DNA of 64,000 nucleotides. Source: a virus. Taxonomy: Duplodnaviria > Heunggongvirae > Uroviricota > Caudoviricetes. The number at the start of each line of letters is the position of its first letter. Position 1 is the stretch's first letter. The stretch lies in IMG/VR virus record IMGVR_UViG_2910596823_000004; one strand, given 5' to 3'. Shown one piece after another: positions 32,010 through 34,381 of the stretch. The notes under the pieces are model-generated. The model was not told the DNA's origin, ran no database searches, and saw only the letters and a program-made list of their open reading frames with translations. Position numbers and translations under genes: made by a program.

Positions 32010-32363
32010 TGGCTTACCTCATAGATGGTTGGTCGCTGGTGAGAATCTGCCAGCGCAGAACGCAGACGCGGATCATGAACCAGTGCGGCGATAAGTAAGT
32101 CGCCTTTGTGCTCTGCCAGCGTGCGCTTGATATGGGTTTCAAAACTGACACCGCGCGGAACAAGGTGGAGCCAGTCATAATCAATGCCGAAGTCCTTCAG
32201 CCAGCGTTTGGTTGGGCCTTCGAGCGCTTCCGGACGACTACTGATAAGCACCACTTCAGCACCGGAGCGAGCAAAACCACGCAACATGCGGCTGGTGTCA
32301 ACAACGGGTAAAAAGTGATCCACTTACCGCCACCACCAACGGTTTAATATTGATCCACCTTGT

Positions 32364-33146
32364 TTACTCAGGATTAGCTTCAGCTATAACCCCGGCCTTT
32401 CGTTTCTGCTTCAGTCGATAGCTTTCCCCTTTTATTTGCACGACGTGTGAGTGATGTAAGATCCGGTCCAGCATCGCCGATGTCAGCGCTGCATCACCGG
32501 CGAACGTCTGATCCCACTGCCCGAACGGCAGGTTGGAGGTCAGGATCATCGCGCTCTTCTCGTAACGTTTGGCGATGACCTGGAAGAACAGCTTGGCTTC
32601 CTCCTGACTGAACGGCAGATAACCTATTTCATCGATGATAAGCAGCTTCGGGGCCATGACACCACGATTGAGAGTCGTTTTGTAACGGCCCTGACGCTGT
32701 GAAGTGGACAGCTGTAGCAGCAGGTCCGCTGCTGTTGTGAAGCGAACCTTGATGCCCGCCCGTACTGCTTCGTAGCCCATGGCTATCGCCAGATGCGTTT
32801 TTCCCACGCCCGATGGCCCCAGCAACACGATGTTTTCGTTACGCTCTATGAAGCTCAGGGATCGCAGCGACTGGATTTGCTTCTGAGGAGCGCCGGTGGC
32901 GAAGGTGAAGTCGTACTCCTCGAACGTCTTTACCGCCGGGAAGGCTGCCATCCGCGTGTACATCGCCTGTTTACGCTGATGCCGGGCCAGTTTCTCCTCA
33001 TGTAACAGGTGCTCCAGGAAGTCCATGTAGCTCCATTCCTGATCCACCGCCTGTTGCGACAGCGCCGGCGCTGCGCCGATAAGACTGTCCAGCTGGAGCT
33101 GTTCGGCAAGCACCATCAGCCGTTGATGTTGCAGTTCGACCATCAT
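32364..33146 (-). CDS. istB: IS21-family helper ATPase IstB
   Basis: Walker [12 protein letters not shown], Walker [10 protein letters not shown]. 260 aa. Confidence 0.8.
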
Positions 33147-34165
33147 GCGGCTCCTCTGCAGAACGTGTCATAGATGGAGAGCGGATGATGCAACGGCTGC
33201 CTGTCGAAGGTCATCAGGCTTTCATCAACCTGCACGTCATACTGTTTTTTCTCCGGTGGCAGTGCCAGCATGGATTGCTGTTCCTCCACCCAGCGATCGC
33301 AGGGGCGGGTCTGGATAGTTTCATGCTTACGTTGATTGGCCACATCGTACAGCCAGCGCAGGCCGTAACGGTTTGCGGTTTCAACATCGACGGTGATCCC
33401 CATCGGACGCAGGCGTGTCATTAACGGGATATAGAAGCTGTTGCGGGCGTACTGCACCATCCTCTCCACCTTGCCTTTAGTCTGCGCCCTGAAGGGACGG
33501 CACAGGCGGGGAGAGAAGCCCATCTCTTTGCCGAACTGCCACAGGGAAGGATGGAACCGGTGCTGCCCGGTCTGGTAAGCATCACGCTGCAGCACCACCG
33601 TTTTCATATTGTCGTACAGGACTTCCTGCGGTACACCGCCGAAGAAGCTGAACGCATTGCGGTGACAGGCTTCCAGCGTGTCGTAGCGCATGTTGTCGGT
33701 GAACTCGATGTAAAGCATTCTGCTGTATCCCAGAACAGCGACGAACACATGCAGGGGTGACTTGCCGTTTCGCATGGTCCCCCAGTCAACCTGCATCTGC
33801 CGTCCGGGCTCGGTTTCGAAGCGAACGACCGGTTCTGCCTGTGCTGGCAGGGTCTGTTTACGGATGAACTCTCTCAGGATAGTAAGCCCTCCACGATAGC
33901 CCAGCTCCATGATTTCCCTGGCAATAACGGTCGCCGGGATTTTGTAGGGATGCGCATCGCTGATCCGCTTAGAGATGTAATCACGGTATTCATCGAGCAG
34001 TGATGATGGTGCCGGGCGTGGTGAATACTGCGGCTTTTCAGATTTGGCTTTCAGGTGGCTGCGGACAGTATTGCGCGAAATACCCAGCTCCCTGGCAATG
34101 GCCCGGATACTCATTCCCCGCTTGTGCAGGACTTTAATTTCCATACGAATCTCAAAAGTGATCAT
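33143..34165 (-). CDS. istA: IS21-family transposase IstA
   Basis: 340 aa with an N-terminal HTH ([18 protein letters not shown]) and DDE region. Coupled to istB. Confidence 0.8.
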
Positions 34166-34381
34166 AAGCTCCCCTGTATTCAGAGGAGCAGATTAACCCC
34201 TGGATCAATTTTCAACCGCTGGGGTGGATCAGTTTTGCACCGTTGGTAACAGCTGGTGGGAAAGATGAGTTCATCACCGGCAATGAGAGCGCCTGCATCC
34301 GCATCAGACACTGCTTTGCGATGGCTGGCTCTCGCCAGCACACCTTCAATTTCACACAACACATACATCCCTCTGGCCATA

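Follow-up and report, generated by a model that had tools for sequence, protein, structure and literature searches.

A complete ISSen3 copy inside a conserved small gene between thyA and dfrA51 of an SSU5-type phage-plasmid

The inserted element and its empty site

The window analysed here, a 64,000-nucleotide stretch of DNA from a Caudoviricetes virus (IMG/VR record IMGVR_UViG_2910596823_000004), contains an operon on its minus strand in which thyA (thymidylate synthase), a small open reading frame (ORF) of 137 codons, folA (dihydrofolate reductase, DHFR) and a kinase-like gene follow each other in this order. The small ORF is split by a complete insertion sequence (IS) of the IS21 family, ISSen3, which occupies positions 32296-34251 on the minus strand and is oriented in the direction of the interrupted operon. 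By direct reading, both boundaries of this 1,956-bp element can be placed to the base, as the original prediction had claimed: the left end begins with TGTCAACAACGGG at 32296, and the right end runs to ...CCGTTGGTAACA, with its last base at 34251. The element is bordered on either side by the pentanucleotide GCTGG (32291-32295 and 34252-34256), again by direct reading, and this sequence is present only once in the empty sites of the relatives described below.

The termini of the element are formed by imperfect inverted repeats of 28 nt, which were 79% complementary in a repeat search and show the 5'-TG...CA-3' form of IS21-family ends. One lies at 32296-32323, at the istB-proximal end, where the minus strand ends ...GTTGTTGACA; the other (34224-34251) is the istA-proximal end. 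Further copies of the end sequence are found subterminally at 32334-32358 on the istB side (direct repeat D6 and inverted repeats I2/I3) and at 34201-34222 on the istA-proximal side (direct repeat D10 and inverted repeats I3/I7). Such multiple-repeat ends are typical of IS21-family elements. The two genes of the element are consecutive, istA preceding istB, and overlap by 4 nt. The first (33143-34165, minus strand) encodes a transposase of 340 aa with an N-terminal helix-turn-helix (HTH) and a DDE (rve) core (Pfam rve, E = 1.3e-18; HTH_38) and matches the NCBIfam profile transpos_IS21 (IS21 family transposase) with E = 1.5e-91. The second (32364-33146, minus strand) encodes an AAA+ helper ATPase of 260 aa (Pfam IstB_IS21, E = 8e-111; NCBIfam 'IS21-like element helper ATPase IstB', E = 3e-140; the NCBIfam accessions for the pair are NF033546 and NF006616). 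Together with the short target duplication, for which we applied the IS21-family range of 4-8 bp, these features place the element in the IS21 family. Its organisation can also be likened to that of the prototype IS21 of plasmid R68.45, with its two genes for IstA (DDE) and IstB (AAA+), multi-repeat ends and short duplications; IS21 and ISSen3 both have a -35 hexamer that faces outward from the istB-proximal end.

A megablast search with the element against 72,556 plasmid records returned 351 records with at least 99% identity, and dozens of the plasmid copies were 100% identical over positions 1-1956. These identical copies reside on plasmids of Salmonella, E. coli, Enterobacter, Citrobacter, Klebsiella, Leclercia, Raoultella and Edwardsiella, and RefSeq labels all of them 'IS21-like element ISSen3 family'. 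The copy on pSC138 of Salmonella Choleraesuis (NC_006856) is identical and has ATCAC on either side; on an IncHI2 plasmid of Klebsiella aerogenes, TTCAG borders both sides of another copy. These two copies have the same ends and independently confirm the termini and the 5-bp length of the duplication; chance does not account for the pattern. Compared to annotated ISSen3 such as that of pSC138, all 1,956 bp, the termini and the duplication length are alike, and only the insertion site differs. At 100% identity, the element therefore belongs to ISSen3 under the usual isoform threshold for one named IS, which is roughly 95% nucleotide identity over the full length.

The same threshold separates it from IS100, to which the original prediction had likened it. 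The IS100 copy of Yersinia pestis plasmid pPCP1 (NC_003132) shares the family, the organisation, the TG...CA ends, the overlapping genes and the protein sizes (IstA, 340 aa; IstB, 260 aa) with our element, and the two align end to end (1,954 bp for IS100 compared to 1,956 bp). But the nucleotide identity is only 82.5%, with 85.3% amino acid identity for IstA and 95.8% for IstB. Thus, the assignment to the IS21 family and a loose likeness to IS100 hold, whereas the element is a distinct IS and not an isoform of IS100.

The empty site is preserved in IS-free relatives, namely Salmonella phage SSU5 and plasmids of Enterobacter, Citrobacter and Salmonella, all of which have a single GCTGG and an intact ORF of 137 aa. 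In SSU5 and the Enterobacter hormaechei plasmid NZ_CP019891 the site reads ...CAACATGCGGCTGGTGGGAAAGATG... (...CATGCGGCTGGTGGGAAAG...) and lies within an annotated hypothetical gene (WP_023315986.1; SSU5_082) between those for thymidylate synthase and dihydrofolate reductase. Removal of the IS and of one GCTGG copy from the window rebuilds this ORF, MARGMYVLCEIEGVL...FPTS|RMLRGF...YEVSQ, whose product differs by one residue from the protein of the E. hormaechei plasmid and by three from that of SSU5. The comparison with IS-free relatives therefore yielded the continuous frame of about 140 codons that had been expected between thyA and folA. When the whole window was aligned locally to NZ_CP019891 with blastn, nothing but the IS and the duplication (1,956 + 5 bp) was additional at this place, in agreement with the proposed simple, non-composite insertion. 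The subject coordinates of the two matches overlap by 7 nt at the site, of which five are the duplication and two a chance TG common to the start of the IS and the target.

This junction appears to be private. A match spanning it, defined by at least 80% coverage in megablast, was found in none of 1,902 matching plasmid records, 14 phage records and 5,426 E. coli genomes, and the exact 36-nt junction string was absent from the genome, viral and metagenome contig collections that we scanned. A protein homologue search likewise returned no product running from the gene into the IS, which is weak further evidence for a private insertion. Since no searched collection contains the junction, the insertion looks both recent and private; the perfect duplication and the 100% identity to other ISSen3 copies also suggest a recent event.

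The carrier

The DNA around the insertion belongs to a known group of elements. The thyA-folA flanks are 97.8% identical on the nucleotide level to phage SSU5 and 99.2-99.4% identical to plasmids of 107-124 kb from Enterobacter, Citrobacter, Salmonella and Kluyvera, most of which are non-mobilizable. The closest backbones are those of Salmonella enterica CP074286 and of Enterobacter and Citrobacter plasmids. The plasmid that we examined in detail, NZ_CP019891 (112 kb, IncFIB-typed), is collinear with the whole window and contains repA and partition genes along with terminase, capsid, tail and lysis genes and a DNA-metabolism block. With its close identity to SSU5 and this combination of a collinear plasmid and a siphovirus backbone, the window is, by sequence comparison, an SSU5-type phage-plasmid. 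It shares its backbone with SSU5- and pHCM2-type phage-plasmids and differs from them by the IS and in several variable segments. The earlier suggestion that the carrier spends time as a resident plasmid or prophage is borne out by this backbone, in which repA and par genes occur together with phage structural genes, as judged from the collinearity with NZ_CP019891.

Each of the 40 closest plasmid records was matched by our query at one place only, which implies that none of these plasmids carries ISSen3 anywhere. The end sequence of the IS also occurs only in a single copy within the window. As for the host, a passage through bacteria carrying IS100 (e.g., Yersinia) had been proposed. Because the element is ISSen3, it is uninformative on IS100-bearing hosts, and the host inference should instead point to Enterobacteriaceae with ISSen3-bearing plasmids.

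Other mobile elements were observed in sibling SSU5-like plasmids, including an IS110-family element and ISSen4, both in the variable region, and a betT-containing insert; NZ_CP019891 carries a Tn3 with blaTEM-1.

The interrupted gene

Based on the reconstruction, the N-terminal fragment of the gene (M1-S43) lies at 34252-34380 on the minus strand, with its ATG at 34380 and within the ORF 34180-34506; it now continues for 26 extra codons into the IS before a stop codon is reached. The C-terminal fragment (R44-Q137 plus the stop codon) lies at 32006-32295, also on the minus strand. A GTG at 32323, within the end of the IS, opens a chimeric ORF of 105 aa (32006-32323) that is in frame with this second fragment. 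The insertion thus separates codons 43 and 44 and falls inside PTSRMLRGFxRSGxE, a signature that the clade of this protein conserves as its own and of which TSRMLRGFxRSGxE is invariant.

The original prediction described the gene as HAD-like (haloacid dehalogenase-like) with a motif I, and noted that phages often carry a deoxynucleoside monophosphate (dNMP) phosphatase or nucleotidase between thyA and folA. In PHROGs the interrupted protein matched phrog_5387 ('unknown function') with E = 7.5e-88 and, more weakly, phrog_415 (polynucleotide kinase family; E = 8.6e-08). The Pfam match to HAD_PNKP remained below threshold (19 bits compared to a cut-off of 27.6), and NCBIfam profiles gave no match for the interrupted protein. 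The AlphaFold model of a 99% identical homologue (P0001) has a mean predicted local distance difference test score of 83.6. A Foldseek search with this model retrieved the structures 4xru, 1ltq and 5uj0, with template modelling scores of 0.76-0.81 and E-values down to 1.5e-07; the matched parts are the phosphatase domains of Pnkp1 or of T4 polynucleotide kinase/phosphatase (T4 Pnkp). A comparison of the family profile with the PDB gave the same two proteins (Pnkp1, E = 6.8e-20; T4 Pnkp, E = 1.9e-10). Together, the model and the profile support a HAD fold of the polynucleotide kinase/phosphatase (PNKP) type with a predicted Rossmann-like core. The predicted fold is like that of the phosphatase domains of T4 Pnkp and bacterial Pnkp1, and the window protein is a stand-alone version of 137 aa.

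The HAD-like fold of the earlier claim thus agrees with our analysis, but its motif I does not. In place of DxDx(T/V) with its Asp nucleophile, the protein has C-E-I-E-G-V-L. In the alignment with T4 Pnkp, the E-I-E-G-V of the window protein stands opposite D-V-D-G-T, with E10 in the place of the first Asp. A Glu at the nucleophile position is invariant in all close homologues (12/12). Farther out in the clade, this position is occupied by E, A, T or G and the acidic pair of motif IV is missing; the canonical motifs DIDGTLAD and EDR/DDR are found in relatives at a still greater distance. The SSU5-type protein has the Ser of motif II and the Lys of motif III; of motif IV it retains H-D, and the nearest homologues show no conservation there. 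Compared to T4 Pnkp and Pnkp1, the clade therefore has ExE/ExD instead of DxD in motif I, and the acidic residues of motif IV are not conserved. Since Glu takes the place of the nucleophilic Asp and motif IV lacks conservation, a role as dNMP phosphatase or nucleotidase is not supported.

The interrupted protein is possibly a pseudo-enzyme that has its place between thyA and folA. A more far-reaching proposal would be that the protein is not a phosphatase and instead partners with, or regulates, the dTMP/folate enzymes of the phage, or else that it is a HAD enzyme with unusual chemistry, that the window is a natural knockout which shows the gene to be dispensable for maintenance in the plasmid state, and that the insertion also lowers the expression of dfrA51 by loss of translational coupling. 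We regard this whole chain as unlikely.

Downstream genes, origin of the insertion and variable parts of the window

The genes surrounding the interrupted ORF are tightly packed. The upstream gene thyA (34382-35497, minus strand; Pfam Thymidylat_synt, E = 3.6e-79) carries the same annotation in the relatives, and the ATG of the small ORF at 34380 lies 1 nt past the thyA stop codon. The stop codon of the small ORF overlaps the ATG of folA (32009) as ATGA. folA itself (31533-32009, minus strand; Pfam DHFR_1, E = 3.3e-34) is the first gene downstream of the insertion, and its stop codon overlaps by 1 nt with the ATG of the kinase-like gene (30889-31533, minus strand), which encodes a P-loop protein of the AAA_28 type (Pfam AAA_28, E = 5.8e-09). 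The folA product of the window is identical to the SSU5 DHFR at 157 of 158 aa. The latter was named DfrA51 by Wang et al. and raises the minimum inhibitory concentration of trimethoprim when expressed in E. coli (PMC12217456). Judged by this identity, the 'folA' of the window is DfrA51, a published DHFR of the trimethoprim-resistance type. The window copy has Cys at residue 22 (R22C), a position that is Arg in both SSU5 and the E. hormaechei plasmid.

Given the tight gene overlaps and the translational coupling that they suggest, some loss of expression of folA and the kinase-like gene is plausible, as the original prediction had also considered. Promoter-like and terminator-like matches in the region were, in total, not above those in shuffled controls. 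On the minus strand, the istB-proximal tip of the IS (32296-32301) ends ...GTTGTTGACA and thereby provides a perfect outward-facing TTGACA (-35 hexamer). In the flank, the best -10 candidate 15-19 nt downstream of this hexamer has 2/6 matches to TATAAT. A hybrid outward promoter is therefore unsupported: the TTGACA sits at the tip of the IS, yet the flank provides no usable -10. If the two IS ends are abutted with a 1-3-bp spacer, the TTGACA comes to lie 16-18 nt from TGcAAAACT, an extended -10-like sequence in the other end. In tandem or circular forms of IS21, a junction promoter is formed by the abutted ends. The abutted ends of ISSen3 resemble this arrangement and might function as a promoter by analogy.

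Our preferred explanation, to which we assign a probability of about 95%, is that one complete ISSen3 copy transposed into codon 43/44 of the conserved 137-aa gene, which an SSU5-type phage-plasmid carries in its operon of thyA, this small ORF, folA (dfrA51) and the kinase-like gene, and that the phage-plasmid was then living as a plasmid prophage in an enterobacterial cell that had ISSen3 as well. According to the established biology of the IS21 family, IstA, with its HTH and DDE transposase core, would have synapsed the two multi-repeat ends, and the AAA+ ATPase IstB would have delivered the target DNA. Cuts in the target staggered by 5 bp and subsequently filled in would then account for the GCTGG duplication. 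Besides splitting the ORF, the event would be expected to reduce the expression of folA and the kinase-like gene, which follow downstream with translational coupling.

None of the evidence contradicts the insertion itself. If the IS were only an arm or inner stretch of something larger, be it a composite transposon or a resistance island, this would be in keeping with the observation that SSU5-like phage-plasmids do gain transposons and integrons (PMC9600943) and with the Tn3 carrying blaTEM-1 in the relative NZ_CP019891. But the extra DNA is exactly the IS and its 5 bp, and the duplication directly borders this single copy. The base-level comparison with the empty site, the synteny over the whole window and the absence of a second IS end from the 64 kb led us to reject a larger or composite element, to which we assign only a very small chance. 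About as little speaks for an assembly artefact, in which an IS repeat from elsewhere was misthreaded into the contig. ISs are classic sources of misassembly, and the junction occurs in no other record searched, but a misjoin would not yield a precise 5-bp direct duplication at the exact termini of the IS, and the flanks otherwise equal the empty site base for base. That the element is IS100 proper, as known from Y. pestis and the E. coli high-pathogenicity island, and marks a passage through an IS100 host is the least credible of these readings. The shared family, gene sizes, near-equal length and end-to-end alignment could be taken in its favour, but the nucleotide identity to the pPCP1 copy is far below the isoform level, IstA is only 85.3% identical, and the copies with 100% identity are ISSen3 instead. 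We therefore rejected the identification as IS100.

A different kind of alternative accepts the insertion and regards it as functionally selected, because it would alter the expression of the downstream dfrA51 by the outward TTGACA or by read-through from istAB. The TTGACA tip abuts the target directly, 287 bp upstream of folA, the IS and the operon have the same orientation, and IS-derived hybrid promoters are established activators of resistance genes, with IS26 as an example (PMC9600943). Against this stand the poor -10 candidates in the flank, where the promoter scan also finds no promoter, the interruption of the coupling chain thyA - ORF - folA by the insertion, and the fact that the insertion was seen only once. 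Overall, we consider selection for altered dfrA51 expression rather improbable.

Some points weigh against parts of our preferred explanation, that is, a recent transposition of ISSen3 with a polar effect on the operon. The name ISSen3 derives from the RefSeq annotation of identical copies by the Prokaryotic Genome Annotation Pipeline (PGAP). Many of the 100% identical copies have one flank in common, so there are fewer separate transposition events than the record counts suggest, one context having been inherited. The recent date is deduced indirectly, and a perfect 5-bp duplication can last long. The polar effect is likewise plausible rather than proven. No terminator-like site was predicted on the minus strand inside the IS, and read-through from the operon promoter may therefore still reach folA.

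Within the SSU5 group of phage-plasmids, gain and loss of ISs are documented, and some elements differ by that alone (bioRxiv 10.1101/2025.09.12.675607). Insertions of resistance genes into SSU5-like elements were reported to concentrate at a single locus, close to phoH and to a gene for a ligase (PMC9600943). The present insertion is a single private event outside this PhoH/ligase-side locus, in a different and conserved locus. It is a real but ordinary event, in which a known IS entered a known kind of carrier, and neither the insertion locus nor the proximity to dfrA51 will surprise a specialist. Its main value lies in the annotation: the window represents an SSU5-type phage-plasmid that was probably once a plasmid in an enterobacterium carrying ISSen3, and one of its genes is a pseudogene. 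Since the insertion lies one gene upstream of dfrA51, it could alter the trimethoprim phenotype. This possible effect on dfrA51 expression and the degenerate family of PNKP-phosphatase-like genes are the only, mildly novel, leads.

Apart from the insertion, the window differs from its relatives in a number of segments. Four of them (15840-17184, 19452-20495, 25194-27089 and 44960-45567) remained unmatched in megablast with the plasmid that was closest among those compared in full and are likely accessory or variable cargo. They contain ORFs without a Pfam match, e.g., one of 396 aa at 15854-17044 (minus strand) and two on the plus strand at 25388-25990 and 26188-26997. An ORF with a GIY-YIG nuclease domain (17186-18151, minus strand; 321 aa counted from a TTG start) lies in a region with only ~83% identity to the E. 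hormaechei plasmid, whereas 97-99% is reached elsewhere. A further segment without a match in NZ_CP019891 (~51191-52303) encodes an SPFH/Band 7 protein of 276 aa (51209-52039, minus strand). The RecA homologue of the window (52335-53411, minus strand) is a plain protein of 358 aa, whereas RecA of NZ_CP019891 contains an intein and is encoded by a gene of 2,343 nt.

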